A DNA stretch of 64,000 nucleotides from the NCBI GenBank assembly GCA_964527595.1, contig CAZGPI010000002.1, forward strand, positions 27,225-91,224, given 5' to 3'. Below, piece after piece: positions 4,727 through 54,993 of the stretch (the stretch's first letter is position 1; every line of letters begins with the position of its first letter). The DNA comes from an uncultured Pseudomonadota bacterium. Its GTDB lineage: Bacteria > Babelota > Babeliae > Babelales > RVW-14. Both the position numbers and the translations under genes were made by a program. Below the pieces are notes generated by a model. The model saw only the letters and a list, made by a program, of their open reading frames with translations. It ran no database searches and had not been told where the DNA came from.

Positions 4727-4745
4727 AAAGGGATAATGCGCACAT

Positions 4746-4798
4746 TAGGGAGATGCAGGAGGTTGAGCCTGCCCCGGACTTTGATCCGGGGGCCTGCA
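4746..4798 (+). repeat. GC-rich stem-loop repeat, long variant, copy 3 (gmd-fcl spacer)
   Basis: TAGGGAGA-TGCAGG-AGG...inner hairpin CCCCGGA-CTTTGA-TCCGGGG...G-CCTGCA. The fcl ATG is 13 nt after the outer stem. Confidence 0.8.
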
Positions 4799-4811
4799 TA
4801 TATAAAGAATA

Positions 4812-5891: not shown

Positions 5892-5898
5892 GGTTGTG

Positions 5899-7668: not shown

Positions 7669-7689
7669 AGGATTAGCGTGGATAATCGG

Positions 7690-9473: not shown

Positions 9474-9495
9474 TTTTTACTGGGGTATCTAAATT

Positions 9496-10719
9496 ATGAT
9501 AACGACAAAAAAAAGAATTGCGATTAACGCTGCTGGATTTAGCGGGTGGGGCGGAGGTATTGATTTTGTAAGAATATTGCTTAATGCATTAGCCTCCATT
9601 CCTAGCGAAACTTTTGAATATTTTATTTTTATTCAGGTTGATTCTCCTGTTTCTACTCATTATTGTTGTAAGATAGGTAAAATAATAAAAACAATTCTAA
9701 ACGTTTTGCCAGCGAAAAAACAAGAAAATGTGAATCGTCACGTTGATTTATTTTTATCAGCTTTTGAAAATATAGATGGTAATTTTAATATTATTTTTTA
9801 TCACGAGCATGAGTTAGAATATTTTTTAAAAAAATTAAACATTGATCTCTATTTACCTATTCCTCCATCCAGAAATCGGTCTTTTTTGCCTATAAAGCAA
9901 ATAGGATATCTTTACGATTTTCAGCACGAATATTATCCACAGTTTTTTTCGGCAAACGAAGTTAAAAAGCGACGGGAATGTTTTGAATTTATACTAAAAA
10001 GCTTTGATGTTATCTTAGTTAACGCGCGCGCGGTTGCTGATGATATTAAGAAGTTTTATCCTTTATGTACAAAAACGATTGTTGTTTTGCCTTTTGCGGC
10101 CGCTCCTGTTGCGCTCTGGTTTGAATCATATGATGTTAGTGAATTAAGACAAAAATATAAGTTACCACAAACTTATTTTATGATATCAAATCAATTTTGG
10201 CAGCATAAGTCGCATATTACTGCTTTCCAGGCATTAAAAATGCTTGATCGAGATGATGTTCATATTGTTTGTACCGGAAATACCAGCGATTATAGGGCTC
10301 CCGATTATTTTGGTCAATTGTCTGATGAAATTAAGCGTCTAAACTTGGGAAAGAGAATTCATTTTTTAGGGCACATCTCTAAGATTGAGCAAATAAATAT
10401 CATGAAAAATGCATTGGCTGTTTTACAACCAACTCTTTTTGAGGGAGGGCCTGGCGGCGGTAGTGTTTATGATGCTGTTGCGCTTGGCGTTCCTTCAATC
10501 GTTTCAAATATTGCCGTTAATCGGGAAATAGATGATCATACCGTTATTTTTTTTAACGTGGGTGATGCCAGTGATATGGCGGTTAAGATGGATCAAATTT
10601 TGAATGGAAATTACTTAAGGATAGCCGGTCAAGAAGCCGCGGCTAATGGCTTACGCAGGACAAAAAGCCTAAATGATGTATTGGTTAATGCTATAAATAT
10701 GGCGTTACGAGAAAAGTGA
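9496..10719 (+). CDS. GT-B fold glycosyltransferase (GT4/GT1-like)
   Basis: C-terminal LQPTLFEGGPGGGSVYDAVALGVPSIVSN matches the E-x7-E region of GT4 enzymes. Located in the glycan operon. Confidence 0.7.
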   Translation: MITTKKRIAINAAGFSGWGGGIDFVRILLNALASIPSETFEYFIFIQVDSPVSTHYCCKIGKIIKTILNVLPAKKQENVNRHVDLFLSAFENIDGNFNIIFYHEHELEYFLKKLNIDLYLPIPPSRNRSFLPIKQIGYLYDFQHEYYPQFFSANEVKKRRECFEFILKSFDVILVNARAVADDIKKFYPLCTKTIVVLPFAAAPVALWFESYDVSELRQKYKLPQTYFMISNQFWQHKSHITAFQALKMLDRDDVHIVCTGNTSDYRAPDYFGQLSDEIKRLNLGKRIHFLGHISKIEQINIMKNALAVLQPTLFEGGPGGGSVYDAVALGVPSIVSNIAVNREIDDHTVIFFNVGDASDMAVKMDQILNGNYLRIAGQEAAANGLRRTKSLNDVLVNAINMALREK

Positions 10720-10733
10720 GAGGAAGCCTTTGT

Positions 10734-11666
10734 ATGCAAACGCTAGAATTGTCGGTTGTTTGCGGGTCGTATAATCGAAACAATTTTTTTAAATTGACCA
10801 TTGATAGTATACGTAATGAGCTGGGTGGTATTGCACATGAGATTATTGTGGTTGATGGGGGATCTGATGATGGAACCCTTGAGTGGCTTGTTCAACAAAA
10901 AGATATCATAACAATTGTTCAACATAATCGTGGCATATGGAATAATAAACCTATAGAGCGGCGTTCGTGGGGCTATTTCATGAATCTTGGGTTTAAAATA
11001 GCTCAAGGTAAGTATGTGTGCATGTTGAGTGATGATTGTTTGGTTATTCCTGGTGCTATAATTAACGGAATTAAACATTTTGAAGAATCGTTGGCGCAGG
11101 GGAAATGTGTTGGCGCCATGGCATTTTATTGGCGCGATTGGTCATCAGAAGATATAAAATATCATGTAGGTTGCACGTTGGGCAGCAAGATGTATGTGAA
11201 CCATGGCATATTTCTTAATGAAGCTTTAGGGGCCGTTGACTATTGTGATGAAGAGACTTTTTTCTTTTACAATGGCGACGGCGATCTTTGTCTTAAAATG
11301 TGGCAGGCCGGATATGAGTGTATTGATGCTCCTGATTCTTATATCGAACATTATCCTCATGCAAATTTGGATATTCGCAAAACAAATTATGTGCGCTTTA
11401 AACAAGATTTAAAGAACTATCTCAAAAAATGGGAGGGGATATTCTATGATTCGCGTGTTCATGATGTTGGAAAGACGATAGAAAAGACCTATGAAGATCC
11501 ATATAAAACTGGTGAGCAATTTAAGTTTTTACATGAAAAAATTGTTCAAGAAAATCCCAAAATCATAAAGCCGATTTCAGGTTTATCTAAACTTAAGCAG
11601 CAATTTCGTTGGAAATGGCAGGCTGGAGTTCGTAAAATTCGCGCTTATATTACTTCGAAACAATAA
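10734..11666 (+). CDS. GT2 family glycosyltransferase (soluble)
   Basis: LSVVCGSYNR, VVDGGSDDGT and MLSDDC (DxD-like) motifs. ATG 10734 has GAGAGGAAG upstream; the ORF-track start is GTG 10716. Confidence 0.7.
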   Translation: MQTLELSVVCGSYNRNNFFKLTIDSIRNELGGIAHEIIVVDGGSDDGTLEWLVQQKDIITIVQHNRGIWNNKPIERRSWGYFMNLGFKIAQGKYVCMLSDDCLVIPGAIINGIKHFEESLAQGKCVGAMAFYWRDWSSEDIKYHVGCTLGSKMYVNHGIFLNEALGAVDYCDEETFFFYNGDGDLCLKMWQAGYECIDAPDSYIEHYPHANLDIRKTNYVRFKQDLKNYLKKWEGIFYDSRVHDVGKTIEKTYEDPYKTGEQFKFLHEKIVQENPKIIKPISGLSKLKQQFRWKWQAGVRKIRAYITSKQ

Positions 11667-11697
11667 CCATTTTTTTACCCTCAAGCAAACGGTATTT

Positions 11698-13464
11698 TCA
11701 TTCGTGAGCAACAAACTGTTGCTTTTCATAATCCAAGGTAATTACTAAGGGTTTTTGTTTAAGATGTTTTTGATCAAAGGTAAGGGTTAGGTCGGTGACA
11801 ATACCTAAAACACTCTGATGAACAGTTTTCGCACCGAGAGATAGATAATTATCAGATAGCGAAAAGTTTATTTTTTGTGGATTAGTTGATGTTAAGCGAA
11901 CGCTTGTTGGTGTATTGGTTATAGTAAAGTAATTTTTTGTATAGTAGGGTGCGCAGCGCATATACCAGCCAGCATGTTCTAAGACATTTGAATTATTCTG
12001 GGTGAGCATAGTTGATGGATCATAATAAACAGGATTTGTTGGAGGAGTTAAAAATAACCAGGCAGCTTGTTCGATTCCGGTACCAAATCCGTCGAGTGGA
12101 AACGCAAGAAAACATAAAGGGCGTGTACCTGAGGTGATTCGCTGGTCATTGGCGAGAGCCAAAAAGGCCTTCTTCATCGTAAAAAGTTTTGTTTCGCGGG
12201 TGCGTAAGTTTGTGTAGGTAAAGAAGGCGCATAGGCCAATAAGGGCAGTACATACAATAGTAATTATTACGTTTATGTATTTGCGGATAGGGATAGGGCG
12301 TTTCCCCCTGAAAAATGAATATATGCTTGTACTTAAAACTGCGAACAAGACAAAAAGAAATGGAGAGGCTTCGTGAAAATACCGTGGGCTATAGGCGCCA
12401 AAAAGTGATGGCCAGAGCATGAGTAGATAGCTAGCGCCGAGGAATAAAAGTAGGAATTTATGTTTATTGCGCCAAAAAAGTATTGCAATAACGAGTGTGG
12501 CAATAAGTAATAAGCTAAGGCGCAGACATTTATGTCCATAAGGGAGCCATGAGAGTGAGAGTGAATCGTAGATACAAACAAGGACTTCGTTAAAACGTGA
12601 AGTTATTTTTGAAAAAATAGTGAAGGCTGAGGATATAGTAAAATTATAGAGCAGGCCGCTCCAGCCGTCGCCCAGGTGGCTATTGCCGGCAGGCCCTCCT
12701 GCACCTCCCTGGAAAAGTTTATGAAACGGATAAAGCCATATGCGAATTGCAAGATATCCGAGTGCTGCTAAACCGTGGGCAACTGGTGCCCATGATATTT
12801 TTTTCTGATACAACCAGCAGCCGCCAAAAAGTATTGCAGGAAATACTATTGCTGTTTCACGGGTAAATAGAGCAATCGTGAAAAACAGTGTCGAAAAAAG
12901 TAAGTAAATGTATTGGCGTCGATCTAGAAAATAGTTGAGCATGATTATGGTAAGCATAAGCAACAAGACATTCAGATAATATTGAAAATTTGCTGGTGCA
13001 CCAAAGCGAAAACCAATTTGTGGGTGCAGGGCAAAAAGAAGCGCAAAAAAAAGTGCAGACGGCCAACCAGAAAACCATGTAAGGATATTGAAAAGAATGG
13101 TTGTATTGAGTGCGTGCAAAAAAACGCTTACCAAATAATAAGCGTAAGCATTAAGGCCGAAAAGCCAATAAGCACAAGCAAAATAAGCGCAATGAATTGG
13201 GCGAAAATAAACACTTAAGAAGTTTAACTTATGAATAGTTGCTGCGCCATACGGTGTATAAAATTGGTGGTGCGATGGGTAAAAGTATTTGTTAACGTTG
13301 CCTTCGATAAAATGGCTCCAAAGCGTTTGCCAGGATTGCATTGTTTTGCCCAGAGCAATGCATGAAAAATCATCACCGTTAAACCACCAGCTTGAGAAAG
13401 GGAGGCCTAAAAAGCAAAAAACAAAGAAAAAAAGCGCAAACGAAATGATAACTTTTTTATTCAT
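11698..13464 (-). CDS. GT-C-like polytopic membrane glycosyltransferase, family A paralog 1 (PMT/TMTC-like F-x-x-DD-[FW]-x-x-I loop motif)
   Basis: At least 10 TM segments. The first loop has WWFNGDDFSCIAL. Paralogous to 13467..14933 and 36169..37824, sharing the LGLPF..W.F..DD start and the SPRY/SSRY region. Contains an in-frame long-form repeat (QGGAGGPAGNSHLGDGWSGL). Confidence 0.6.
   Translation of the reverse strand: MNKKVIISFALFFFVFCFLGLPFSSWWFNGDDFSCIALGKTMQSWQTLWSHFIEGNVNKYFYPSHHQFYTPYGAATIHKLNFLSVYFRPIHCAYFACAYWLFGLNAYAYYLVSVFLHALNTTILFNILTWFSGWPSALFFALLFALHPQIGFRFGAPANFQYYLNVLLLMLTIIMLNYFLDRRQYIYLLFSTLFFTIALFTRETAIVFPAILFGGCWLYQKKISWAPVAHGLAALGYLAIRIWLYPFHKLFQGGAGGPAGNSHLGDGWSGLLYNFTISSAFTIFSKITSRFNEVLVCIYDSLSLSWLPYGHKCLRLSLLLIATLVIAILFWRNKHKFLLLFLGASYLLMLWPSLFGAYSPRYFHEASPFLFVLFAVLSTSIYSFFRGKRPIPIRKYINVIITIVCTALIGLCAFFTYTNLRTRETKLFTMKKAFLALANDQRITSGTRPLCFLAFPLDGFGTGIEQAAWLFLTPPTNPVYYDPSTMLTQNNSNVLEHAGWYMRCAPYYTKNYFTITNTPTSVRLTSTNPQKINFSLSDNYLSLGAKTVHQSVLGIVTDLTLTFDQKHLKQKPLVITLDYEKQQFVAHE
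12651..12712 (-). repeat. GC-rich stem-loop repeat, long form, copy 4 (in-frame inside GT-C-like gene)
   Basis: The reverse complement reads CCAGGGAGGTGCAGGAGGGCCTGCCGGCAATAGCCACCTGGGCGACGGCTGGAGCGGCCTGC. It has 3 differences from copy 6 over about 58 nt. Confidence 0.9.
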
Positions 13465-13466
13465 GG

Positions 13467-14933
13467 TTATTTGGTGTTACTTAAAATATGAAACTGTTGT
13501 TTTTTATTGTCCCAGGCAATGAATAATGGATTGAATTTTTGATACTTTGCTTCAAGAGGTTCTTGGGCGATATTAAAAACAGGATGACTGCTATCTCCTC
13601 GCAATAGCCAAATTGCTTGTGCGCAGGCACCAAAAAGATGCGGTTCTTGAGGAAGATTAATAAAACAAATAGCACGATTTGTGGTGCGGCTATCTTTGGC
13701 GAGTGAGGTGAATGCTTGGGTGACGGGGTGATATAATTGTTCACGCCTTTTTAGGTCATGAAATAAAAATATACCATTTACTATTGTAGCGGTAATGATA
13801 GCGACAAGCAGGAGTTTCTTGGTAATGGTTTTGAGCTTTTGGATTGGCAAAAGAACGATTACAAGCATTATGAAAAGGGGAATCGCTATGTAATAATAGC
13901 GGGGTTGGTTATGCATTAGCAATGCCGGCCAGCCAAAGAGTGGAATGCTGAATGCTAAAAACAGAGCAACCATTTTTTTATTTGTTTTAGTAAAAAACCA
14001 TAGCAGCAGAAGACAAATGCTAAAAATTAAAAATCCTTTGAACCAAGGGGTATTTTTTGGCAAAGCGGTTAACCCAAAAACATCAGAGATGAAGGTTATG
14101 AAATCAAAAGCGCGGCTTAACATGCGCGTTTTGAAAGATAGCCATGTTGGTTCAAAGGTGAGGGTTGCGGTATTTGAGGTTAAAGGGAAAAAGTGTAGCC
14201 GAGCAATGAAATAAAAAAAGGTAATCGCAAAAAATGGAAGTGATACGAGTATCGCTCGTTGTAGGCAATTCAGCAAAGAGAGTGAACTTTTGAGGATTTC
14301 TTTTTCATAAAGTGGTATGGCAAAAAGAAGCCACAGAGGTAAAAAGAAGGTTTGCTCATGCAAAAAAATGTTTGTACAAAAAAGGGCGCAGGCAAAAAGA
14401 TAAGCCCATTTTTTTTTGTGATCTAGATATGATTTAAGTAAAAGAATAATGCAAAGTAATATGAAAAGCTCGATTTGATATGTTTGGGCACTTATCCACC
14501 CAAGCCAGGTCCATAAACTTGGATGAAATCCAAAAAAAAGTGCTGCAAAAAAGGCAATTGGTATGCTGGTAAATAGCGAATATAGATTAAAAATAAGGAT
14601 TGCAGAGAGCGCATGAATAGCTATTGTTATCAAAAAATAGCCATAAGGATGTGCGGCGAAGAATATATATTGAGGGATGAGATAAACTAATGACATTGGG
14701 CGATAGAGGCCACAAAAAAAAGCTGTTTTTGTGGCCTCTGCGTTAGATGGCCAATAAAAAGCATCAAGGCTTTGTCCATCGGTGAAAAAAGTAATAACAT
14801 CTTGCCATGTTGTTATGACACTATGAAAAATATTTCCCCAATCATCAGATCTGAATCCCCATTTTGTGAATGGAATACCGAGTATGCAGAAAATAAGAAG
14901 AAAAAGGATGATTGATAGATACCGTTTTTTCAT
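13467..14933 (-). CDS. GT-C-like polytopic membrane glycosyltransferase, family A paralog 2
   Basis: LGIPFTKWGFRSDDWGNIF first-loop motif and many TM segments. Tandem with paralog 1. Confidence 0.6.
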   Translation of the reverse strand: MKKRYLSIILFLLIFCILGIPFTKWGFRSDDWGNIFHSVITTWQDVITFFTDGQSLDAFYWPSNAEATKTAFFCGLYRPMSLVYLIPQYIFFAAHPYGYFLITIAIHALSAILIFNLYSLFTSIPIAFFAALFFGFHPSLWTWLGWISAQTYQIELFILLCIILLLKSYLDHKKKWAYLFACALFCTNIFLHEQTFFLPLWLLFAIPLYEKEILKSSLSLLNCLQRAILVSLPFFAITFFYFIARLHFFPLTSNTATLTFEPTWLSFKTRMLSRAFDFITFISDVFGLTALPKNTPWFKGFLIFSICLLLLWFFTKTNKKMVALFLAFSIPLFGWPALLMHNQPRYYYIAIPLFIMLVIVLLPIQKLKTITKKLLLVAIITATIVNGIFLFHDLKRREQLYHPVTQAFTSLAKDSRTTNRAICFINLPQEPHLFGACAQAIWLLRGDSSHPVFNIAQEPLEAKYQKFNPLFIAWDNKKQQFHILSNTK

Positions 14934-15922
14934 AGACAGGCCGTTTCCAGCCTGCGCCCTATCGTGGCTACGGCGGACAAGCCCTTCTGTGCAGGCTGTC
15001 CATTAAAACTAAGTTCCATGATCGTTTGTGATATTTGTTCAACAGTTAATCCAGCCATTGAGAGAAGGTCTTTACGTGTTCCCGTTGTGTGGAAGTAAAA
15101 ATCATTTATGCCAAACATTTTAAAAATAATATGATGATCGATTTGTTGACTTATGATTGATGCCACCGCCTCGCCAAGCCCGCCAATAACACTATGTTCT
15201 TCGATGGTAAATAGTGCTTTTAGTGTGCCACTTTTATTAATGAAATAATTGGCATCAAGTGGTTTAATAGTATGAACGCTTGCAAGGCCGATAGAAATTC
15301 CTTGTTGATTTAAATAGCTACAAACTAAGAATGCAAGGTCGAGCGCATTACTTGAGGCAAGAATGAGCTGATTTTCATTTGGTATTATGTCTAAAATTTT
15401 ACCCAGTGTTACGGGTTCTTTTTCGTTATATTGGACGAGTTCTTCATTATTTGAAAGACGCAGATATGCCGGGCCTTGATGATTTACAAATTGGGGCATA
15501 AGCTGTGCCGCTTCATATTTGCTTCCTGGTGCAATAACGGTCATTTCTGGCAAGGCGCGCATAATAGCTACATCTTCAACTGCGTGGTGAGATAATCCAT
15601 ATTGGGCATAACTGAATCCGCCGCCAACGCCAACTAATTTAATGGGTAGGTTTTGATAGCAAATATCAATTCGAATTTGTTCAAAGCAGCGCATGGTGAT
15701 AAAAGGGATGGTTGAATAAGCAAACACTTTCTTACCCGTTATAGCGAGGCCTGCGGCGAGGCCAATCATGTTTTGTTCAGCAATGCCGGCATTGATAAAT
15801 CGTGTTGGAAATTTTTCTTTAAATTCTTCGACGACAGAGAATCCGACATCACCAACAACTAAATAAATAGTTTCGTCTTGTTCGGCCGCTTGTGTGAGAT
15901 ATTTAATAAACGTAGTACGCAT
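14930..15922 (-). CDS. Transketolase-family TPP enzyme, C-terminal (pyrimidine-binding) subunit
   Basis: FINAGIAEQNMIGLAAGLA and SHHAVEDVAIMRALP are typical of the split transketolase / DXS-like C-terminal half. The last ~25 aa (NGQPAQKGLSAVATIGRRLETACL) are encoded by a repeat copy. Confidence 0.85.
   Translation of the reverse strand: MRTTFIKYLTQAAEQDETIYLVVGDVGFSVVEEFKEKFPTRFINAGIAEQNMIGLAAGLAITGKKVFAYSTIPFITMRCFEQIRIDICYQNLPIKLVGVGGGFSYAQYGLSHHAVEDVAIMRALPEMTVIAPGSKYEAAQLMPQFVNHQGPAYLRLSNNEELVQYNEKEPVTLGKILDIIPNENQLILASSNALDLAFLVCSYLNQQGISIGLASVHTIKPLDANYFINKSGTLKALFTIEEHSVIGGLGEAVASIISQQIDHHIIFKMFGINDFYFHTTGTRKDLLSMAGLTVEQISQTIMELSFNGQPAQKGLSAVATIGRRLETACL
14935..15000 (-). repeat. GC-rich stem-loop repeat, diverged long form, copy 5 (3-prime tail of the transketolase C-subunit gene)
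   Basis: The reverse complement reads GACAGCCTGCACAGAAGGGCTTGTCCGCCGTAGCCACGATAGGGCGCAGGCTGGAAACGGCCTGTC. It aligns with the long-form core (AGGGCTTG.CCG.C.TAGCCAC...GGGCG.A.GGCTGGAAACGGCCTG). Confidence 0.7.
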
Positions 15923-16794
15923 TATTGCTCCAATTCTTTTTTGGCTTGAACGTACAATTCAGGATTTAATGAACGATAATGCCATTCGACTTTATTTTCG
16001 GTAAAAGAAAGCCCTTTTCCCTTTATGGTATGGGCGAGAATGACTAATGGCTTTTGACTTTTTTCACGCTGATTAACAGCATCTATAATTTGGCAATAAT
16101 CATGTCCATCGATTTCAATTGTTGAGCAACCAAAGGCGTTAAACATCGTTGAAAGGTTTCCTGTCATTATGTCATCGGTCTTATCGATTGCTTGTAACTT
16201 ATTATAATCAACAATAATAGTAAGATTATTAAGATGATAGCGGCTTGCAACCATAAGAGCTTCCCATATGGCGCCTTCCTGACATTCACCGTCGCCAACA
16301 ATGACATAAACATGATTAGATTTATGGTCGTTTTTTAGCGCAAGTGCGCAGCCAACACCCATCGACAATCCGTGCCCAAGAGAGCCAGTACTTGCCTCAA
16401 TGCCTGGAAATGATCCCTTGGTTGGTTGTCCGCCCAATTTGCTGCCTTTTTTGTTATACGATAAGGCCAACTCTTTTGACATGCAACCAGCGGTCATGAG
16501 TGTAGCGTAAAGGGCTGAAACTGCATGCCCTTTGCTGAGGATAACGTAATCACGATCGACATTCTGGCTTTTTATATGTTTGACATTAATTATTTGATGG
16601 TATAAAACGGTTAAAATTTCGACGATCGAAAATGCCGATGCCAAATGCGAACATTGCGCCGATGTGAGCATCTCAATGATTAAAAGCCTGGTTTCTTTAG
16701 CATATTGAGAGAGATGATTAAGGCATTGCGGATTGATTTTGTTGGGCGTTAATGATTGAATCATTAATGATTTCTCCTTTATGATAAAATTCAA
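15922..16794 (-). CDS. Transketolase-family TPP enzyme, N-terminal (TPP-binding) subunit
   Basis: SKGHAVSALYA, GSLGHGLSMGVG and GDGECQEGAIWEA...NNLTIIVDYN (the GDG-x(25-30)-N TPP motif). The start overlaps the upstream SDR gene. Confidence 0.85.
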   Translation of the reverse strand: MNFIIKEKSLMIQSLTPNKINPQCLNHLSQYAKETRLLIIEMLTSAQCSHLASAFSIVEILTVLYHQIINVKHIKSQNVDRDYVILSKGHAVSALYATLMTAGCMSKELALSYNKKGSKLGGQPTKGSFPGIEASTGSLGHGLSMGVGCALALKNDHKSNHVYVIVGDGECQEGAIWEALMVASRYHLNNLTIIVDYNKLQAIDKTDDIMTGNLSTMFNAFGCSTIEIDGHDYCQIIDAVNQREKSQKPLVILAHTIKGKGLSFTENKVEWHYRSLNPELYVQAKKELEQ

Positions 16795-17713
16795 GATGAT
16801 TTTTAAACCAGGTCAGAGATTTTTTAAGCCCCTTGGCTAGATTATAATGAGGGTGCCAATTAAGAACTTGTTGAGCAAGTGCATTGTCCGCTTTCCATTG
16901 CTTTGGTTCCCATGGGCGTGTTTCTGATGCGTTCCATTGAACAATGATTTTTTTGTCGCTCATCGATTGGGCGGTATTGATGACATCTTGGATAGATGAC
17001 TGAATTCCTGTCCCTGCGTTAAATACAAAATGGGTTCGTGGAAGTTGCTTGGTTATTGCAATATACATATCAACCATATCTTCTATATAGATAAAGTCTC
17101 TGACATAAGAAGGTGAAGAAAGTTGGATTGGTTTTTCTGCAATTGCATTAACAAGAACCGTTGGAATAAGTCGTGTTGGTGCTTCATAATCGCCATAAAC
17201 CGAAAATGGGCGTACGGTATAGATTGGTAATTTATTAGATACTGCCTCTTTAAGGCAGAATTGTGTTGCGGCCGCTTTGGCAACACCATAGTCACTTACC
17301 GGTTCCAAGATGAGGTCTTCTTTCATAGGGCAACTTTTCATGCCATATTCTGATGAGCTTCCGGTATTGATGAAACATTCAAAGCCAACTTCTTTGCAGA
17401 CATTTACGAGGTTTTTTGTACTGTCAAAATTAACGTAATAAATTGAATCTTGGTCATCTTGTTGAGGCATGCCGCCATAAGATGCGAGGTGGAAAATCAA
17501 TTCAGGCTTGATTGTTTTGACAAGTGTATTAATTTTTTCAAAATTGCTGATGTCTATTTCATGTATGGTTATTTGGCTAAGGATGTTGGTTAATCGCCAG
17601 AGCGGAGAATTTTTTTCAATTACGACATGAATATGATATCCGGATGTAAGTAATTTTCTGATCAAGTTGGCGCCAATAAAGCCGGCGCCGCCGGTAACAA
17701 GACATATTTTCAT
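16718..17713 (-). CDS. NAD-dependent sugar epimerase/reductase (extended SDR)
   Basis: MKICLVTGGAGFIGANL Rossmann start and YGVAKAA (YxxxK). Sits between the CDP-hexose genes and the split transketolase. Confidence 0.8.
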   Translation of the reverse strand: MKICLVTGGAGFIGANLIRKLLTSGYHIHVVIEKNSPLWRLTNILSQITIHEIDISNFEKINTLVKTIKPELIFHLASYGGMPQQDDQDSIYYVNFDSTKNLVNVCKEVGFECFINTGSSSEYGMKSCPMKEDLILEPVSDYGVAKAAATQFCLKEAVSNKLPIYTVRPFSVYGDYEAPTRLIPTVLVNAIAEKPIQLSSPSYVRDFIYIEDMVDMYIAITKQLPRTHFVFNAGTGIQSSIQDVINTAQSMSDKKIIVQWNASETRPWEPKQWKADNALAQQVLNWHPHYNLAKGLKKSLTWFKNHLEFYHKGEIINDSIINAQQNQSAMP

Positions 17714-18741
17714 AGAGATCCTTCGTTATGGAAAATTGTCGATGCTGGTAAAATTGTGGTTATGGTGGCAGCTTCATAAAAAGATGATTGAGGGATAGCT
17801 TTTTGAGCGCTGCTTTGTTGCATGATTTCACGAATTACGTAAGGTGGTCTGCCTTTTACTTCTTCAAAAATTTTGATGAGGTATTCGCCAAGTGTTGCAA
17901 GTGCTAGCAGTTGAATGGTACCGAAAATAAACATGGTCATGAGTAAGGTCGAAAATCCTTTAGGGGCGCCATATTTAAAGTGCCAATAGAGAAATGTTCC
18001 TGCTGCACCGACGGTAACAAATACGGCGGCCATAGCCAGCCGAGATATATACACAAGGGGCTTATAGGAGAAATTTACGATGGCTTTTTTTGCCCACATA
18101 AAGTTTGCCATGAAACTATTGCTCGATTTTCCGGCCGCGCGTTCTTCTCTTGTGTATTCAATTCCCGTCTGTTTAAATCCTGCCCAGGTGCGTAGACCAC
18201 GAATATAAAGATCTTTTTCTGGTAAATGTTTGAGCACATTAACTACCTTTTTATCAAGCAAGCTAAAGTCACCAGAATCAAGTGGAATGTCGAGATAAGA
18301 AAGTTGTTTGAAAACGCGGTAGAAGCACTTATAGCCTATTCTTCGCAAAAAACCATTATCTTTACGCTTTTTTGCAATTCCATAAAGAACGTCAAAGCCA
18401 GCTTCCCATTGAGCGATAAATTGTGGAATTATTTCTGGTGGGTCTTGAAGCGCACCCGACATAATCAGAACTCCGTCACTTTGCGCAAATCGAAATCCTG
18501 CAAGAATGCTTGGTTGATTGGAGCCAAAATTGCGTGACATGAAAATGGCTTTAACGTGAGCATCGCTGGCGATTGTTTCTTGGAGTATGTTATATGAATC
18601 ATCGGTGCTCGCGTTATCGATAAAGACGAGTTCGTAGTCATAAGCAGGAAGTGTGTGCATGACTAATGTAACGCGGTGATGAAGATTTTTTATGTTCTTT
18701 TCTTGATTATAACAAGTTGCAATAATTGATATTTTTTTCAC
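17710..18741 (-). CDS. GT2 polyprenyl-phosphate glycosyltransferase (Dpm1/GtrB/ArnC-like), second copy
   Basis: ISIIATCYNQEKNI, IDNASTDDS and the SGALQDP region, plus C-terminal TM helices. I prefer GTG 18741 as the start. The ORF-track start at 18846 reads through a repeat and overlaps rfbG by about 95 nt. Confidence 0.75.
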   Translation of the reverse strand: MKKISIIATCYNQEKNIKNLHHRVTLVMHTLPAYDYELVFIDNASTDDSYNILQETIASDAHVKAIFMSRNFGSNQPSILAGFRFAQSDGVLIMSGALQDPPEIIPQFIAQWEAGFDVLYGIAKKRKDNGFLRRIGYKCFYRVFKQLSYLDIPLDSGDFSLLDKKVVNVLKHLPEKDLYIRGLRTWAGFKQTGIEYTREERAAGKSSNSFMANFMWAKKAIVNFSYKPLVYISRLAMAAVFVTVGAAGTFLYWHFKYGAPKGFSTLLMTMFIFGTIQLLALATLGEYLIKIFEEVKGRPPYVIREIMQQSSAQKAIPQSSFYEAATITTILPASTIFHNEGSL

Positions 18742-18751
18742 AAAGCGGTCC

Positions 18752-19834
18752 TTATAGGGAGGTGCAGGAGGGCTTGCCGGCCATAGCCACCTGGGCGACG
18801 GCTGGAACGGCCTGCGGTAGATTATTGATTTTATTTTCTTGAGCAAAATAGTTTTTATACCAAGCTACTGTTTCTTCAAGCCCTTTGCGAACGCCGTATT
18901 TTGCATGCCATCCAAGAACGGTATGTGCTTTTTTTGAGCAAAGATGTTGGGCTGGAATTTCATTGCAGGCCATGTTTTTGATTATTGGGGTAAGGTGGTT
19001 AGCGTTCATGAGATCCAAAATTTCATGCACCATTTCAACAACGGTGAATGGGTGGTCGGTACTGAAGTTGAAACATTGGCCGACTATTAACGGATTTTCC
19101 ATTGCTTGGGCAAGGGTAAGGTAAGCGTCAACCACGTCTTTTACATAAATGTAATCGCGAACAAATTGGCCATTTGATCTAATTACAGGGGCTTGGTTAT
19201 TAAGAATAGCTTTGATGGTTCCAGGTATTATGCGATTAAGGTGAAAATCACCGCCACCAAAAAAATTTCCACATCGTGTTACGCAAACCGGAAGTTTAAA
19301 CGTATGGAAATACGATTGAGCTATCAGGTCGGTGCAGCTTTTTGAAACATCATAAGGGTGTTGGCCTTGCAGCGGAGCATCTTCGGTATAGGGTAATTTT
19401 TCTTGTGCTCCATAGGCTTTATCGCTTGAAGCAACAACGATGCGTTTGACCCATGGGCTTAAGCGGCAAGCTTCCAAAAGGTTCCATGTTCCTTCGATAT
19501 TTGACCTGAATGTTGAGATCGGTGAGCGATTTGCATAACCGACAATTGCCTGGGCGCCTAAGTGGAAAACTGTTTCAATATCACTTTCATTCAGAACGCG
19601 AGTGAGTAGGTTTTGATCAAGAAGGTCGCCGATAATGACGGATGTTTTTTTATCCAACTGTTGCTGAAAAAATACTGAATGTGAAATGAGATCACGTATT
19701 AAAACAAAAACGTTGGCTTCTTGCTCAATAAGCTCTTGAACAAGCCAGGGGCCTAGTAATCCAGTTGCTCCGGTTACTAAAACATTTCTGTTTTTCCAGT
19801 ATTTTTTTTCATTTGTATAATTTTCCACGAGCAA
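18752..19834 (-). CDS. rfbG: CDP-glucose 4,6-dehydratase
   Basis: WKNRNVLVTGATGLLGPWL, ASSDKAYG and HPYDVSKSCTDL (YxxxK). Sits directly downstream of the cytidylyltransferase. The C-terminal tail is encoded by a long-form repeat. Confidence 0.85.
   Translation of the reverse strand: MLVENYTNEKKYWKNRNVLVTGATGLLGPWLVQELIEQEANVFVLIRDLISHSVFFQQQLDKKTSVIIGDLLDQNLLTRVLNESDIETVFHLGAQAIVGYANRSPISTFRSNIEGTWNLLEACRLSPWVKRIVVASSDKAYGAQEKLPYTEDAPLQGQHPYDVSKSCTDLIAQSYFHTFKLPVCVTRCGNFFGGGDFHLNRIIPGTIKAILNNQAPVIRSNGQFVRDYIYVKDVVDAYLTLAQAMENPLIVGQCFNFSTDHPFTVVEMVHEILDLMNANHLTPIIKNMACNEIPAQHLCSKKAHTVLGWHAKYGVRKGLEETVAWYKNYFAQENKINNLPQAVPAVAQVAMAGKPSCTSL
18755..18817 (+). repeat. GC-rich stem-loop repeat, long form, copy 6 (rfbG / GT2 junction)
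   Basis: TAGGGAGGTGCAGGAGGGCTTGCCGGCCATAGCCACCTGGGCGACGGCTGGAACGGCCTGCGG. This equals the short form with about 33 nt inserted between AGGG and AACGG. Confidence 0.9.
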
Positions 19835-19839
19835 GTTCC

Positions 19840-20745
19840 TTAGATAATGCTTGAAGTTGTTTTTTCAGCTGGCATTGAGATACACGATGTGTCAATGGTT
19901 GCGGGTGTAAATACATCTTTTTCATCGCCCCATACTTTCCAAGGAGCACCCGTCTTCCAGAGTTCTTCGAGCTTTTGGTGTTCGCGGATAGTGTCCATGC
20001 ATTGCCAAAATCCATAATGTTTGTACATCATGAGTTGACTATCTAAGGCAGCTTGTTTAAGCGGTGTTTGCTCAAGAATGCAGTCTGAACCAACAGAAAG
20101 ATATTTGAGAAAATCTTTTTGTATAACCATGTAGCCACCATTAATCCATTCATCTTCGATTTTCTTTTTTTCTGAAAAAGAGACGATGGTATTTCCTGAG
20201 ACTTCGAGATTTCCAAAGCGTGATTGGAGATTGACGCCGGTAAGTGTTATATGTTTTCCGTGTGATTCATGGAAGTGAACAAGATCCTTAATGTTGACGT
20301 CGGCAACGCCGTCGCCGTAGGTAAGCAAAAAGGTGTTAGTATCAACGTATTTTGCCGCACGTGCAACGCGTCCACCGGTTAAGCAATCTTGTCCCGTGTC
20401 TACTAACGTTATTTCCCATTCTTCATTATTTGCTTGGTGCTCAGAAACAACTCCGGTCTTGGTATTGACGGTAAAATTTATATCTTCCATGCGGTAATTA
20501 AGAAAATAATTTTTAATTACTTCGCCTTTGTAGCCAAGGCATATGATGAATCGATAAAAGCCATAGGTTGAATAAGTTTTCATGATGTGCCAGAGAATTG
20601 GCTTGCCGCCGATTGGAACCATTGGTTTTGGGCGAAATTCTGTTTCTTCTCGTAGGCGCGTTCCTAGTCCGCCAGCAAGAATCATTACCGGAATATTACT
20701 CTTCTTCACTACGTATCTCCTTTTGATTTTGAATGAATAATTCAC
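19840..20745 (-). CDS. rfbF: Glucose-1-phosphate cytidylyltransferase
   Basis: VMILAGGLGTRLREETEFRPKPMVPIGGKPILWHIMK and YGDGVADVNI match RfbF/DdhA. The exact start is uncertain. Confidence 0.9.
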   Translation of the reverse strand: MNYSFKIKRRYVVKKSNIPVMILAGGLGTRLREETEFRPKPMVPIGGKPILWHIMKTYSTYGFYRFIICLGYKGEVIKNYFLNYRMEDINFTVNTKTGVVSEHQANNEEWEITLVDTGQDCLTGGRVARAAKYVDTNTFLLTYGDGVADVNIKDLVHFHESHGKHITLTGVNLQSRFGNLEVSGNTIVSFSEKKKIEDEWINGGYMVIQKDFLKYLSVGSDCILEQTPLKQAALDSQLMMYKHYGFWQCMDTIREHQKLEELWKTGAPWKVWGDEKDVFTPATIDTSCISMPAEKTTSSII

Positions 20746-20838
20746 TCAACAGATAAGTTCTCTTATGTTATGTTTCATGATGTTACATGTCAAGACTCAA
20801 TGTCAAAATATTAAGGCTGAGAGAGCATAGGATGAAGT

Positions 20839-21534
20839 ATGGCAGCACCAATAAAAATGCAGGCAACCGTTGCTGAAATTATTCAGTATTCAGGTGATAT
20901 ATACCAGGTAGTTTTTACACCTGAAAAAAAAATACCAAAATTTAAATCGGGTCAGTTTTTACATTTGGCTCTAGATGAATATGACTCATATACTGGTTTG
21001 TGGCCAGAGTCGCGGGCATTCTCAATAGCATCATCAAATAAAAGCTCTCAAATAACGATTGTGTACAGTGTTAAGGGAAGTTTTACCGGACGTATGAAAA
21101 ATGAGCTCTGTGTTGGGAAGACCGTTTGGTTAAAATTTCCTTATGGTTCATTTGTGATTAATGCATACGACCATACTCAAGATGTTGTGTTAGTAGCTGG
21201 CGGAACAGGAATTGCTCCATATATTCCATATCTGGAAGAGGAACTTGTGCAGCCAACAGGAAGGCGAATAGTTCTTGTTTATGGTATTCGTGGTGATCAC
21301 TGTTTCTTGTTTGAAGAGTTAGTGAAAACACGTTGCCAATGGTTGCCTAAATTTGAGCTTGTGTTGTTTAATGCGCAAGCGATTGATTTTTCTGTGGTTA
21401 TTAATAAGGCAGAGGCGTTACATGATCCACATTATTTCATATCAGGTCCGCAAGGCATGATAACGTCGTTGCGTAGCTTTTTGGCGTCTGAGTGTGTAAG
21501 TCAAGATAGGGTTCATGTTGACGATTGGGATTAG
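20839..21534 (+). CDS. FNR-type FAD/NAD(P)H oxidoreductase, candidate E3-like reductase partner of RfbH (no ferredoxin domain)
   Basis: RAFSIAS (R-x-[YF]-S FAD motif) and LVAGGTGIAP (NAD(P)-binding). Only 231 aa, with no Cys-cluster motif. Immediately upstream of rfbH. Confidence 0.65.
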   Translation: MAAPIKMQATVAEIIQYSGDIYQVVFTPEKKIPKFKSGQFLHLALDEYDSYTGLWPESRAFSIASSNKSSQITIVYSVKGSFTGRMKNELCVGKTVWLKFPYGSFVINAYDHTQDVVLVAGGTGIAPYIPYLEEELVQPTGRRIVLVYGIRGDHCFLFEELVKTRCQWLPKFELVLFNAQAIDFSVVINKAEALHDPHYFISGPQGMITSLRSFLASECVSQDRVHVDDWD

Positions 21535-21565
21535 TTTTTTTAGGTAAGTATTGAGGAGTAATGAA

Positions 21566-22924
21566 ATGATTAATGAAGAAAAAGAATTAAGAAAACAAAT
21601 TAAAGATTTAGTTAAGCAATATCATCAGTGTCGGTTTGGCTCTGGCGAAGGTGCCGTAACCTCGGTTCGTTACGCGGGAAGAGTTTTTGATGACGCTGAA
21701 ATGGTTTCGCTTGTTGATGCATCGCTTGATTTTTGGCTAACAGCTGGAAGATTTACCGAAGAATTTGAATCGAGTCTGGCTGCTTTTTTGGATGTTGAAT
21801 CGGCCTTATTAGTTAATTCTGGATCGTCGGCAAATCTACTTGCCATGAGTGCATTAACCTCGCCTTTGCTTGGGAGCAGAAAGTTGAATCCTGGCGACGA
21901 GGTTATAACCGTGGCGGCTGGTTTTCCAACAACCGTCAATCCAATAATTCAAAACAATCTTATTCCTGTTTTTGTCGATGTTGACCTTGGGACTTATAAC
22001 ACGACGTTGGAACGTATACAAAAAGCGCTTTCACCAAAAACTAAAGCAATTTTCTTAGCCCATACCCTGGGTAATCCATATGACCTTGAAGGTATAATAA
22101 AAATTGCTCAGGAAAATAATCTTTTTTTCATAGAAGATTGTTGTGATGCTCTTGGTTCAACGTTTAATGGAAAAATGCTTGGATCATTTGGCCATATTGC
22201 AACCTTTTCCTTTTATCCAGCACATCATATTACGATGGGCGAGGGTGGCGCTGTAGCGACGAGTGATGATGTGCTTGCTCGAGCATTAATGTCGTTACGA
22301 GATTGGGGGCGCGATTGCTATTGTAATGGTGGTGAGAATGATACCTGCGGCCGGCGCTTTACCGGACAATATGGAACATTACCGTTAGGGTACGATCACA
22401 AATACGTTTATTCGCATATTGGGTACAATTTAAAAGCAACCGACATGCAAGCGGCTATTGGTGTTGAGCAACTGAAAAAATTACCAAAATTTTGCCAACG
22501 ACGAAAAGAAAATTTTAAACTTTGGTCAAAAGGCTTTGAAAAATTTTCTGAATACTTTATTCTGCCTTGGGCAATCGCTGGTTCAGATCCTGCTTGGTTT
22601 GCTTTTCCGCTTTCGATTAAAGATGATGCTGGTTTTACGCGTACCGATTTGACAAGGTATTTAGCGAGTAAGAAAATAGAAACACGAAATCTTTTTGCTG
22701 GTAATATTGTTCGCCAACCGGCTTATGCAGACGTTGATTATCGTATCGCTGAACCATTAGTTAATACAGATTTTATCATGAATAATACTTTTTTCTTGGG
22801 AACATATCCCGGGCTTTCTGAGCCGCAAATAAACTATGTTTTAAGCCAGATTCAGGAATTTATTGAGCAACGAAGTGTTCAAACAAAGGAGCATTCGACA
22901 TTGTGTGGCCGCTGCACATTATAG
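21566..22924 (+). CDS. rfbH: CDP-6-deoxy-L-threo-D-glycero-4-hexulose 3-dehydrase (E1, RfbH/DdhC/AscC-like, PMP and Fe-S dependent)
   Basis: DegT-family fold (NSGSSANLLA, FSFYPAHHITMGEGGA with His replacing the PLP Lys, as in E1). Also has the Cys cluster DCYCNGGENDTCGRRF (C-x-C-x7-C). ATG 21566 has GAGGAG 6 nt upstream. Confidence 0.85.
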   Translation: MINEEKELRKQIKDLVKQYHQCRFGSGEGAVTSVRYAGRVFDDAEMVSLVDASLDFWLTAGRFTEEFESSLAAFLDVESALLVNSGSSANLLAMSALTSPLLGSRKLNPGDEVITVAAGFPTTVNPIIQNNLIPVFVDVDLGTYNTTLERIQKALSPKTKAIFLAHTLGNPYDLEGIIKIAQENNLFFIEDCCDALGSTFNGKMLGSFGHIATFSFYPAHHITMGEGGAVATSDDVLARALMSLRDWGRDCYCNGGENDTCGRRFTGQYGTLPLGYDHKYVYSHIGYNLKATDMQAAIGVEQLKKLPKFCQRRKENFKLWSKGFEKFSEYFILPWAIAGSDPAWFAFPLSIKDDAGFTRTDLTRYLASKKIETRNLFAGNIVRQPAYADVDYRIAEPLVNTDFIMNNTFFLGTYPGLSEPQINYVLSQIQEFIEQRSVQTKEHSTLCGRCTL

Positions 22925-24876: not shown

Positions 24877-25587
24877 ATGAGAATCTTGCATAATGCAAAT
24901 CTGATTGAAATACTTAAGCTTTTTAAAGCGATAGGACTTTTTATGTATAACCAAAACAACAATCCAGAGAGCGATTTTACAAAAACATTGTCACGCGATC
25001 GTGATATTATAGAAGTTAATGAAAAAATTGATGAATTAATTAAAGATGAAAAATTCCTTATACAGTTAGCTCAATCAGGCAAGAAGGTTATAAGCGTTGG
25101 GGTATTGCCTGAATCATTAAAGATTAATTTTGCACAATTGATTGAAAAAATAAGCAGTTTGCGTGATGAGATTTTGCAAAAAAAAGAAGACGTTCTTACT
25201 AAAAATTCATTAATCAAACAACGGGTAGCCGTTTTGCTTGGGTCTGAAGAGGTTGATGTTGACCAAACAGAATATGAAAAATCTGAAATTAGCGTTCTAG
25301 AATACTCGGGCTTGCTGGATAATATTTGTGCTGAGTTAAATAGTGAGCATATATCGTTAACATTGTTTTTAAGCGATAAGTGTCCAAAACACGTTATTGT
25401 TGGCGCCCATGCGGCAGAATCTTTTAGCGTAGTAGCACAAGAACAAATTAATGCTATTAAGCGCCATGTTAAAGCAATTCAACGTGATTTAGATGTAAGT
25501 TATTCGCGCTATAGCTATGGTTTTGACGCACAGCTTAAGCGAATAGACTATGTTGAGTCTTTGGTTAAAAAAGAAGAGATTCAATAA
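24877..25587 (+). CDS. Hypothetical protein (predicted helical/coiled-coil, no recognisable domain)
   Basis: Open frame only; Lys/Glu-rich heptad-like stretches. The start is ambiguous (TTG 24865, ATG 24877, ATG 24943). The 3-prime end overlaps the convergent gene by 23 nt. Confidence 0.4.
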   Translation: MRILHNANLIEILKLFKAIGLFMYNQNNNPESDFTKTLSRDRDIIEVNEKIDELIKDEKFLIQLAQSGKKVISVGVLPESLKINFAQLIEKISSLRDEILQKKEDVLTKNSLIKQRVAVLLGSEEVDVDQTEYEKSEISVLEYSGLLDNICAELNSEHISLTLFLSDKCPKHVIVGAHAAESFSVVAQEQINAIKRHVKAIQRDLDVSYSRYSYGFDAQLKRIDYVESLVKKEEIQ

Positions 25588-26434
25588 TCTTTGTTTGCTT
25601 TACCACTTCTTGTGTGCCTCTGATAAGATTTTTTATTGTAACTGTTCCAGCTGCTTGTTCATCATCACCCAATAACAAAAGATATTGAGCATTCATTTTA
25701 TGGGCATATTCCAAGCGTTCTTGAGCCGTTGTAAAATTGAGCACGACGTCAACGCATTTACCGTGATGGTGAAGCGTTGATGCAACGAGTAATGCTAGAT
25801 TGTTCTGGGATTGACTTAGTGGGACAATAACGTGAATCGCGGGGGCTGGTGGCAGCGTTAGTTTTTGATCAAGACTCAATATGGTATCGACGTTAATTTG
25901 TGCTTGCGAGATAGTTTCGTTATTTGGTGAAGGAGTAATCTGGCTACCGTGAGCAAGCGCATTGGTTTTGTTGGTCGAGCGTACCGAGAATTCAAATTGT
26001 GTTTTGCTGGTGTTTTCTCCTGGTATATGGAGTGACGGGTCAACAATAAAACTTATCGAGAGAATTTGTAGCGTATTGGTTAATGCGTTCCATTCTTTTT
26101 GGCATGATGAACATAATTTTTTTGAAGCCTGATCTTTAAGGCAGCCTAGAAAATTTATTTTTAACGTGTACATATCAAGCAACAGCGTTTCACTAAAAAA
26201 GGTATCAAGTATTTTGATGAGCCAAGCATCATCAAAAATGTTTTTTGGTTGTCGAATTGCTACATTTAAATCAATAGATTTATCGGTGATGATGGGGTTT
26301 ATCGCAAATACCTTTTGGCTTTTTTGCGTGTATGTAATTGGTGCTATTTGTTCAAAAAAATTATACAAAGCGAAGTGTTTTCTTAATTTTTCTATAACCA
26401 GGTTAATGTTAAGAATTGATTGTTGTTCTTTCAT
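25565..26434 (-). CDS. Degenerate class-II aaRS (HisRS)-like protein retaining an anticodon-binding-type C-terminal domain
   Basis: The C-terminal region HVIVPLSQSQNNLALLVASTLHHHGKCVDVVL...AHKMNAQYLLLLGDDEQAAGTVTIKNL looks like an HGTP anticodon-binding fold. The N-terminal and middle parts align loosely with the HisRS motif-1 and insertion regions (C..C...W...L..LSISF.VDP). I could not find the RGLDYY or GGRYD catalytic motifs. Confidence 0.5.
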   Translation of the reverse strand: MKEQQSILNINLVIEKLRKHFALYNFFEQIAPITYTQKSQKVFAINPIITDKSIDLNVAIRQPKNIFDDAWLIKILDTFFSETLLLDMYTLKINFLGCLKDQASKKLCSSCQKEWNALTNTLQILSISFIVDPSLHIPGENTSKTQFEFSVRSTNKTNALAHGSQITPSPNNETISQAQINVDTILSLDQKLTLPPAPAIHVIVPLSQSQNNLALLVASTLHHHGKCVDVVLNFTTAQERLEYAHKMNAQYLLLLGDDEQAAGTVTIKNLIRGTQEVVKQTKIIESLLF

Positions 26435-30265: not shown

Positions 30266-30279
30266 TCGTAGGCGTTTTG

Positions 30280-54891: not shown

Positions 54892-54993
54892 ATACATAAC
54901 GATTCTTTTGGGTAAATTTGCAAAATTTACAAATCATTTGATATCTTAAATTTGTCATTTTTACAATTTGGGCTATTAAGGAGTCGGGGTGTT

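Follow-up and report, generated by a model that had tools for sequence, protein, structure and literature searches.

Organization of the locus

We analysed a 64-kb stretch of DNA (64,000 nucleotides; positions 27,225–91,224 of contig CAZGPI010000002.1, assembly GCA_964527595.1), hereafter the window, in which genes for a CDP-activated deoxyhexose lie beside a two-subunit enzyme of the thiamine diphosphate (ThDP)-dependent transketolase (TK) family. An earlier reading of this sequence, the original prediction, had proposed that the TK is coupled to a CDP-3,6-dideoxyhexose pathway and adds a carbon branch to the sugar. Mapping of open reading frames (ORFs) and family searches located every gene named there at its expected position. 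As described, the minus strand read from 20745 to 11698 carries rfbF, rfbG, a family 2 glycosyltransferase (GT2), a short-chain dehydrogenase/reductase (SDR), the two TK subunits (TK-N and TK-C) and two paralogous GT-C-type membrane glycosyltransferases. The features are as follows.

19840–20745, minus strand: rfbF, glucose-1-phosphate cytidylyltransferase (TIGR02623), first gene of the operon
18752–19834, minus strand: rfbG-like CDP-glucose 4,6-dehydratase (best family TIGR02622; PDB 1rkx, 1wvg)
17710–18846, minus strand: polyprenyl-phosphate-type GT2, GtrB/ArnC/PgfS-like (Pfam Glycos_transf_2; PgfS- and ArnC-like)
16718–17713, minus strand: extended SDR (Pfam Epimerase/GDP_Man_Dehyd)
15922–16794, minus strand: TK-N, N-terminal (PP-domain) transketolase subunit (Pfam Transketolase_N, 2.7e-36)
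14930–15922, minus strand: TK-C, C-terminal (Pyr and C domain) transketolase subunit (Pfam Transket_pyr, Transketolase_C)
13467–14933, minus strand: membrane glycosyltransferase of the GT-C fold (AlphaFold and Foldseek; no Pfam model)
11698–13464, minus strand: second GT-C gene, paralogue of 13467–14933 (27% identity; syntenic in locus L082)
20839–21534, plus strand: FNR-like FAD/NAD(P)H reductase, 231 aa (Pfam FAD_binding_8, NAD_binding_1)
21551–22924, plus strand: rfbH (E1), CDP-4-keto-6-deoxyglucose 3-dehydrase (NF011936)
20746–20838, no strand assigned: short intergenic stretch separating the divergent rfbF and reductase genes, with TTGACA sites on the minus strand

Adjacent operon genes overlap or abut by 1–5 bases, which fits a single operon; the exceptions are the uncertain starts of GT2, whose true start probably lies downstream of 18846, and of TK-N, whose database copy begins at ~16764 (280 aa). 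The divergent pair lies on the plus strand, with the reductase gene 94 bases from rfbF and rfbH a further 16 bases on. Two minus-strand sites, 20806–20777 and 20793–20765, have an exact TTGACA as their first hexamer. Promoter-like sites were no more frequent in 20746–20838 than in shuffles, and the promoter and terminator scan gave results no better than with shuffled sequence.

CDP-deoxysugar enzymes

RfbF scored 324 bits on TIGR02623, exceeding the cutoff of 300, and relatives with 41–77% identity adjoin a TK in more than 20 loci. For RfbG, TIGR02622 was the best NCBIfam match at 216 bits, under the 278-bit cutoff; its closest solved relatives are the CDP-glucose 4,6-dehydratases 1rkx and 1wvg, and its translation contains the SDK and YxxxK catalytic motifs. 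RfbH reached 677 bits on NF011936, the RfbH equivalog model (cutoff 423). Both E1 signatures previously ascribed to it are present: His replaces the pyridoxal phosphate-binding Lys in YPAHHITMGEGG, and the C-x-C-x7-C cluster occurs as C-Y-C-x7-C in DCYCNGGENDTCG.

The neighbouring reductase had been described as E3-like. This held for its FAD/NAD (FNR-like) module but not for the iron–sulfur part, as neither a 2Fe-2S ferredoxin domain nor a ferredoxin Cys motif was found in it. The protein aligns with the reductase part of BenC only (profile positions 104–327), and its PDB matches are small FNR-like oxidoreductases. Searches with tblastn recovered no homologue of it in 88 related loci, so that its assignment as E3 comes from adjacency alone. 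We regard this 231-aa FNR-like protein as a possible stand-in for E3.

The split transketolase

The two-subunit architecture foreseen for the TK was confirmed, with Transketolase_N on one chain and Transket_pyr and Transketolase_C on the other. Its best solved relative is itself a split transketolase (TK-N versus 6yak, 2e-59; TK-C versus 6yaj, 1.5e-44). TK-N scored 126 bits on Pfam Transketolase_N versus 31 on E1_dh, and 265 bits on the transketolase model versus 61 for 1-deoxy-D-xylulose-5-phosphate synthase (DXS) and 43 for the dehydrogenase E1. TK-C is also matched by DXS structures and models.

To compare active sites, we carried Escherichia coli TktA numbering over through HMMER alignments to 6yak/6yaj and human transketolase. 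Signature columns were read in 80 split-TK loci and in L089; loci L082–L088 lie outside this set. Canonical split transketolases have GSLGQG, His461, Glu468-Asp469 and Arg520, whereas the window enzyme has GSLGHG, Gly461, Gln-Tyr at 468–469 and Asn520. Within the canonical phosphate- and acceptor-binding set, Arg358 is kept, while His461 is changed to Gly, Asp469 to Tyr and Arg520 to Asn. The enzyme retains His26, His66, His261, Arg358, Ser385, Glu411, His473 and the metal ligands; the stretches GDGECQEG, DYN and IAEQN, read for the ThDP/metal-binding motif and Glu411, are conserved. Comparable changes recur in every CDP-linked TK with readable columns: all have GSLGHG, Gly461 and small or hydrophobic residues in place of Glu468 and Asp469, and all retain His26, His66, His261, Glu411, His473 and the metal-binding Asp-Asn pair. 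The donor and cofactor half-site therefore appears intact, and the residues predicted to bind the phosphate and 2-hydroxyl of the acceptor are lost. In engineered E. coli transketolase, mutating Asp469, His461 and Arg520 admits non-phosphorylated, non-hydroxylated carbonyl acceptors.

In a neighbour-joining (distance-based) tree of concatenated TK-N and TK-C, the canonical split-TK clade was monophyletic in 85 of 100 bootstraps. The window enzyme falls outside this clade and groups with the CDP-linked set. Grouping with housekeeping transketolases would have told against the original prediction; the position outside the canonical clade and the replaced acceptor residues point the other way. 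As far as sequence tells, the window TK is not a housekeeping enzyme.

These data bear on the simplest alternative, an ordinary pentose-phosphate transketolase with a housekeeping or supply role that happens to lie in a glycan locus, for example feeding nucleotide-sugar synthesis in a reduced genome. Clear family membership and a complete cofactor site would be expected of such an enzyme, and a search of the 64-kb window found no second transketolase. By contrast, the replacement of His461, Glu468/Asp469 and Arg520, the position outside the canonical split-TK clade and the occurrence of the subfamily inside CDP-sugar operons of large free-living genomes (Paenibacillus, Bradyrhizobium and Clostridium) make this explanation highly improbable. 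Genomes of these three genera are expected to carry a normal tkt, which would make the operon TK an extra copy. A dedicated supply of sugar phosphates, such as sedoheptulose-7-phosphate for heptoses (compare L046, below), was rejected, as the phosphate-binding residues are the ones replaced.

Related split transketolases also occur elsewhere. A sister group of remodelled enzymes (Gly461, Leu469) is found in other nucleotide-sugar contexts, including that of Candidatus Magnetobacterium (L046). There, positions 4282–16167 hold a heptose-type locus with an HldE-like kinase/nucleotidyltransferase, a GmhA-like SIS isomerase, an SDR, a radical SAM protein, three methyltransferases and a carbamoyltransferase. 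Remodelled split transketolases may represent a general sugar-tailoring tool. On plasmid p5 of Azospirillum argentinense Az39 (L090, 2958–13065), a split TK pair has a context different from that of the CDP operons. Its neighbours encode B12-binding radical SAM and cobalamin-dependent proteins, a kinase, an oxidoreductase and a methyltransferase, and insertion sequence elements flank the region.

Conservation of the module

We used the window proteins as tblastn probes and read neighbourhoods within 10 kb, many of the contigs being short. Conservation of the operon, on which the original prediction had staked its reading, was evident: more than 20 loci, spread over many phyla, show the arrangement rfbF-rfbG-(rfbH)-(SDR)-TKN-TKC. 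Carriers include four Paenibacillus species, Geobacter sp. OR-1, a Wallbacteria bin, Omnitrophota, Bacteroidetes, Synergistota, Bradyrhizobium diazoefficiens, Saccharibacteria, Ryanbacteria, Buchananbacteria, an Anstonellales archaeon and several Babeliales; a Legionella metagenome-assembled genome (MAG), more Dependentiae and Clostridium sp. FP2 came from additional look-ups. Among the 80 sampled loci, 22 of the 47 remodelled TKs have CDP-pathway genes at a distance of up to 10 kb, versus none of the 31 canonical ones (Fisher p = 1.2e-6).

The link to the SDR is particularly close. An SDR gene lies directly upstream of TK-N in most related loci, and on plasmid NZ_CP054609.1 of Paenibacillus cellulosilyticus KACC 14175 (L089, 7097–9004; annotated by PGAP) the two are fused into a single 636-aa protein, labelled merely ‘SDR family oxidoreductase’. 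The fusion lies in the order rfbF, rfbG, methyltransferase, SDR-TK-N fusion, TK-C, TylF-like O-methyltransferase and GT2/GtrA fusion, and is classical evidence of consecutive action. The closest solved structures to the window SDR are NDP-sugar epimerases and reductases. Gene order, neighbour statistics and fusion together reveal a conserved genomic coupling of the TK to an NDP-hexose 4,6-dehydratase and a reductase. The view that the transketolase is a partner in a CDP-ketosugar pathway and not a pentose-phosphate enzyme is much strengthened, owing to the remodelled acceptor site, the position outside the canonical clade, the gene order shared across phyla and the SDR-TK-N fusion.

In Clostridium sp. 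FP2 (L088, 1–20927), rfbF-rfbG-SDR-TKN-TKC is placed between two methyltransferases with the C-methyltransferase domain PF08484. This module belongs to an island for flagellin glycosylation that also holds Maf/MptE-like, NeuB and FliB genes.

Optional 3-deoxygenation

The closest relative with long context, L082, has a TK-N 61–63% identical to that of the window and ~20 kb of synteny with it, spanning a PMT_2-like gene, a Mur ligase gene, the whole operon, the GT-C genes, and GT2 and GT1 genes beyond. Its order is MurLigase-rfbF-rfbG-GT2-SDR-TKN-TKC-GT-C. Nothing lies between the Mur ligase gene and rfbF in L082, at the place where the window has the reductase gene and rfbH. Among other Dependentiae, L086, L003 and L035 lack E1, while in L087 an E1 gene heads the operon; no E1 was found within reach of the TK in L084, L088 or L089. 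Overall, about half of the related loci contain E1. Where RfbH orthologues adjoin TKs in other phyla, 13 of them retain the His-for-Lys change and the Cys motif, whose spacer is longer in one case. The DegT-family proteins of two candidate-phyla-radiation loci, one from Saccharibacteria (L007, 14009–15097) and one from Ryanbacteria (L051, 11745–12926), have His for Lys without the iron–sulfur Cys cluster, and by these residues resemble ColD-type 3-dehydratases rather than E1.

The proposed coupling of the TK to a full CDP-3,6-dideoxyhexose set was therefore upheld as far as the 4-keto-6-deoxy stage. The part that required E1 was not, given that L082 lacks the reductase–RfbH pair and only about half of the loci carry E1. 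The conserved core is RfbF, RfbG, SDR and TK, with 3-deoxygenation a frequent but optional addition.

This raises a second possibility for the window itself, namely that the TK uses the CDP-linked 6-deoxy (3-hydroxy) intermediate and that the reductase–RfbH pair is a separate, later-acquired branch. In that case the TK would yield a branched 6-deoxyhexose instead of a dideoxyhexose, and the acquired pair would make an ordinary 3,6-dideoxyhexose or supply an alternative substrate. The empty interval in the otherwise fully syntenic L082, the lack of E1 in reach in L086, L003, L035, L084, L088 and L089, and the divergent transcription of reductase and rfbH all agree with this. However, E1 or a ColD-like 3-dehydratase adjoins the TK in ~15 loci of other lineages, often directly upstream, which suggests a 3-deoxy ketosugar as the usual substrate. 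Furthermore, the window has no RfbS/RfbE-type 3,6-dideoxyhexose reductase or epimerase to finish a plain dideoxy sugar. On balance, we consider this possibility rather unlikely.

Glycosyltransferases and a proposed lipid-carrier route

The GT2 matched the NCBIfam models PgfS (2e-63) and ArnC (3e-36), both under their cutoffs, and two C-terminal hydrophobic helices can be read in its sequence. Relatives with 28–72% identity lie near the TK in L002, L003, L007, L012, L034, L035, L051, L077, L082, L084, L086 and L087. GtrA adjoins the GT2 in the Legionella MAG (L084), and a GT2/GtrA fusion is present in P. cellulosilyticus (L089).

The two membrane ORFs downstream of the TK, 13467–14933 and 11698–13464, returned no Pfam match even at E = 5 and are paralogues of each other (27% identity, E = 4e-34). 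Their GT-C likeness, previously suspected from the letters, is now supported by an AlphaFold model of 13467–14933 (pLDDT 93), for which the 20 best Foldseek matches in the PDB are all GT-C proteins with a probability of 1.0. These matches, among them AglB, PglB, STT3 and ArnT, have query-normalised TM-scores of 0.42–0.50. Across the family, an acidic DD motif in the first outer loop has an invariant Asp30 and a nearly invariant Asp31. Among the 54 proteins retrieved, all named members are from Dependentiae or Babeliales. The recurrence of GT2 near the TK, the association of GtrA with GT2 in L084 and L089, and the GT-C fold of the membrane ORFs support a lipid-carrier route.

Genes for lipid-carrier glycosylation are numerous elsewhere in the window, at 36169–37824, 27523–31665, 5896–7668 and 712–1716, all on the plus strand. 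They comprise a third GT-C paralogue without a Pfam match (36% identical to 13467–14933), three tandem ORFs weakly similar to PMT_2, a membrane protein with DUF6044 and another GT2 of the polyprenyl-phosphate type.

Proposed pathway

We favour, with moderate confidence, a pathway in which the TK adds a two-carbon branch at C4 of a CDP-4-keto-(3,)6-deoxyhexose, the SDR reduces the branch, and the sugar reaches the cell surface via polyprenyl phosphate and GT-C enzymes. RfbF would first form CDP-glucose, which RfbG would convert to CDP-4-keto-6-deoxyglucose. In this genome, RfbH and the FNR-like reductase could then remove the 3-hydroxyl to give CDP-4-keto-3,6-dideoxyglucose. Family searches underlie these three steps, the reductase excepted, with RfbG scoring under the cutoff of its model. 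In the fourth step, the TK-N/TK-C heteromer would join a two-carbon unit to the keto carbon at C4, which would thereby become a tertiary alcohol. A glycolaldehyde (hydroxyacetyl) unit from a ketol donor is most likely here, a pyruvate-derived acetyl group less so. We infer this substrate, donor and product, the ketol donor being favoured because the clade keeps all histidines that hold dihydroxyethyl-ThDP. The SDR would next reduce the side-chain carbonyl, and the GT2, accepting a CDP-sugar, would move the finished sugar onto polyprenyl phosphate. After flipping, the two GT-C paralogues, the fold being tested by a model of 13467–14933, would attach it to surface glycans or proteins as the putative acceptors.

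A transketolase-like enzyme of a CDP pathway could also perform other chemistry. It might decarboxylate pyruvate as DXS does and form an acetyl or hydroxyethyl branch of the yersiniose type, extend the sugar at a C6 oxidised to the aldehyde, or cleave a C–C bond. TK-C matches DXS structures and models as well, YerE and the branching enzymes related to pyruvate dehydrogenase E1 (PDH-E1) use pyruvate, and loss of Asp469 removes recognition of 2-hydroxy-aldehydes without defining a new acceptor. We nevertheless consider such chemistry improbable, as all five histidines that hold dihydroxyethyl-ThDP are kept in the clade, TK-N scores 265 bits as a transketolase versus 61 as DXS and 43 as E1, and no C6 oxidase is conserved in the module. 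Use of the CDP-ketosugar as a donor that is cleaved was rejected on chemical grounds: its fragments would stay joined through the ring oxygen.

Several observations weigh against hydroxyacetylation at C4 followed by lipid-linked export. His100 is replaced by Gln in the window TK-N alone, which could weaken activity, and the reductase is missing the Fe-S domain that a true E3 has. The SDR is generic, with ring C4 epimerases and reductases as its nearest solved relatives, and might act on the ring instead of the branch. A tblastn search with the L084 GtrA found no GtrA-like flippase in the window. To our knowledge, polyprenyl-phosphate GT2s act with UDP- or GDP-sugars and not with CDP-sugars. 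All members of the group are known from sequence and gene context. In addition, no transketolase has yet been demonstrated to carry out carboligation onto a keto sugar or to use any ketone as acceptor (PMC12247030).

A broader proposal extends C4 hydroxyacetylation to the whole subfamily. Split transketolases with Gly in place of His461 and a non-acidic residue in place of Asp469 would be widespread, unrecognised NDP-ketosugar carboligases of bacteria and archaea, reaching beyond the antibiotic clusters of Streptomyces. Their products would be (3,)6-deoxyhexoses with a hydroxyacetyl or dihydroxyethyl branch, or modified heptoses in the case of the sister group, destined for surface glycans, flagellin glycans and lipid-carrier GT-C glycosylation. 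We advance this tentatively, at somewhat less than an even chance. If true, no earlier physiological reaction of a transketolase would have had a ketone as acceptor.

Host and other features of the window

The host looks like an intracellular bacterium of the Dependentiae (TM6) type. This is based on the sources of the best homologues of TK-N, TK-C and the GT-C family, which are Dependentiae, Babeliales or TM6 metagenome bins, on two tandem TLC-family ATP/ADP translocase genes (43008–44309 and 44417–45751, both minus strand) and on a Mur ligase gene in the window. TLC translocases are a hallmark of energy-parasitic intracellular bacteria and fit a Dependentiae host.

A second nucleotide-sugar pathway lies at 3542–9473 on the plus strand, with a GDP-mannose 4,6-dehydratase, an epimerase/reductase, a DegT aminotransferase and a PglD-like acetyltransferase, which suggests a GDP-linked acetamido-deoxyhexose as its product. 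Three further loci stand out. A 205-aa protein with two PQ-loop repeats (53000–53617, plus strand) looks like a full SWEET-/PQ-loop-type protein, not a single-repeat bacterial SemiSWEET. At 53710–57495 (plus strand), the gene of a NurA-domain nuclease is followed by an 847-aa ORF without a Pfam match, possibly a HerA-like partner. A 289-aa ORF at 25565–26434 (minus strand) has a C-terminal HGTP anticodon-binding domain only, with no catalytic aminoacyl-tRNA synthetase core.

Implications

A TK subfamily that can be defined by sequence and sits in CDP-deoxysugar operons offers many candidates for expression, several of them from culturable strains. It predicts undescribed branched, octose-type sugars in the surface glycans of Paenibacillus, Clostridium, Bradyrhizobium, Legionella-like bacteria, candidate-phyla-radiation bacteria and Dependentiae. 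The remodelled enzymes could also serve as natural templates for biocatalysts that hydroxyacetylate ketones. Recognizing the subfamily further corrects a routine annotation error, as its genes are now called ‘transketolase’ or ‘DXS’. When they are mislabelled in this way, metabolic reconstructions of reduced genomes may assign them to the pentose-phosphate or isoprenoid pathway.

Comparison with known systems

ThDP-dependent formation of tertiary alcohols on sugars has two known scaffolds, YerE-like and PDH-E1-like, with transketolases so far proposed (PMC12247030). A 2025 review of these enzymes covers YerE-like lyases and PDH-E1-like pairs; for split-gene transketolases it gives just a proposal, in which they install the hydroxyacetyl branch of miharamycin and amipurimycin (PMC12247030). 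According to the review, genome mining published in 2024 turned up 13 transketolases of this kind, all in Streptomycetes and none characterised (PMC12247030). In open-access papers, we found no link between transketolases and CDP-sugar or polysaccharide loci.

YerE adds a C2 branch at C4 of CDP-4-keto-3,6-dideoxyglucose, after which a reductase acts (PMC12247030, PMC9306805). In the YerE/YerF system of yersiniose A (Yersinia pseudotuberculosis) and with ErwE and other YerE-like lyases, as in the window, the ThDP enzyme is encoded with rfbF, rfbG and E1-type genes. YerE, however, belongs to the decarboxylase (acetolactate-synthase-like) superfamily, consists of a single chain and uses 2-keto acids. 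Its single-chain TPP_enzyme_N/M/C architecture is not found in the window enzyme, which has two transketolase chains and for which E1 is optional.

The PDH-E1-like alpha/beta pairs of avilamycin, aldgamycin and kibdelomycin (KbDH) share with the window enzyme a two-subunit ThDP organization and the same broad fold, and place a C2 branch derived from pyruvate on NDP-ketosugars. They are of E1_dh type and belong to actinomycete secondary metabolism, whereas the window enzyme is of Transketolase_N type and lies in a cell-surface glycan locus. The miharamycin and amipurimycin enzymes are, like that of the window, split transketolases beside keto-sugar formation, a likeness drawn from gene context alone. 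They lie in Streptomyces nucleoside-antibiotic clusters, whereas the window module, found in many phyla, involves a CDP-activated sugar and predicted surface glycans. The canonical split transketolase of Carboxydothermus hydrogenoformans (6yak/6yaj) is divided into subunits in the same way as the window enzyme and shares its cofactor and catalytic residues, but reads GSLGQG, His461, Glu468-Asp469 and Arg520 where the window enzyme reads GSLGHG, Gly, Gln-Tyr and Asn.

For delivery, the Gtr (GtrA/GtrB/GtrC), ArnC/ArnT and PgfS systems resemble the window in passing from a polyprenyl-phosphate GT2 to GT-C transferases. The Gtr, ArnC and PgfS systems use UDP-sugars, whereas a CDP-sugar is proposed here, GtrA was not found in the window, and the GT-C family has no Pfam model. 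Taken together, the proposed logic of the window module is that of YerE/YerF, on a different scaffold, with a different and much wider distribution and with predicted delivery by a lipid carrier.

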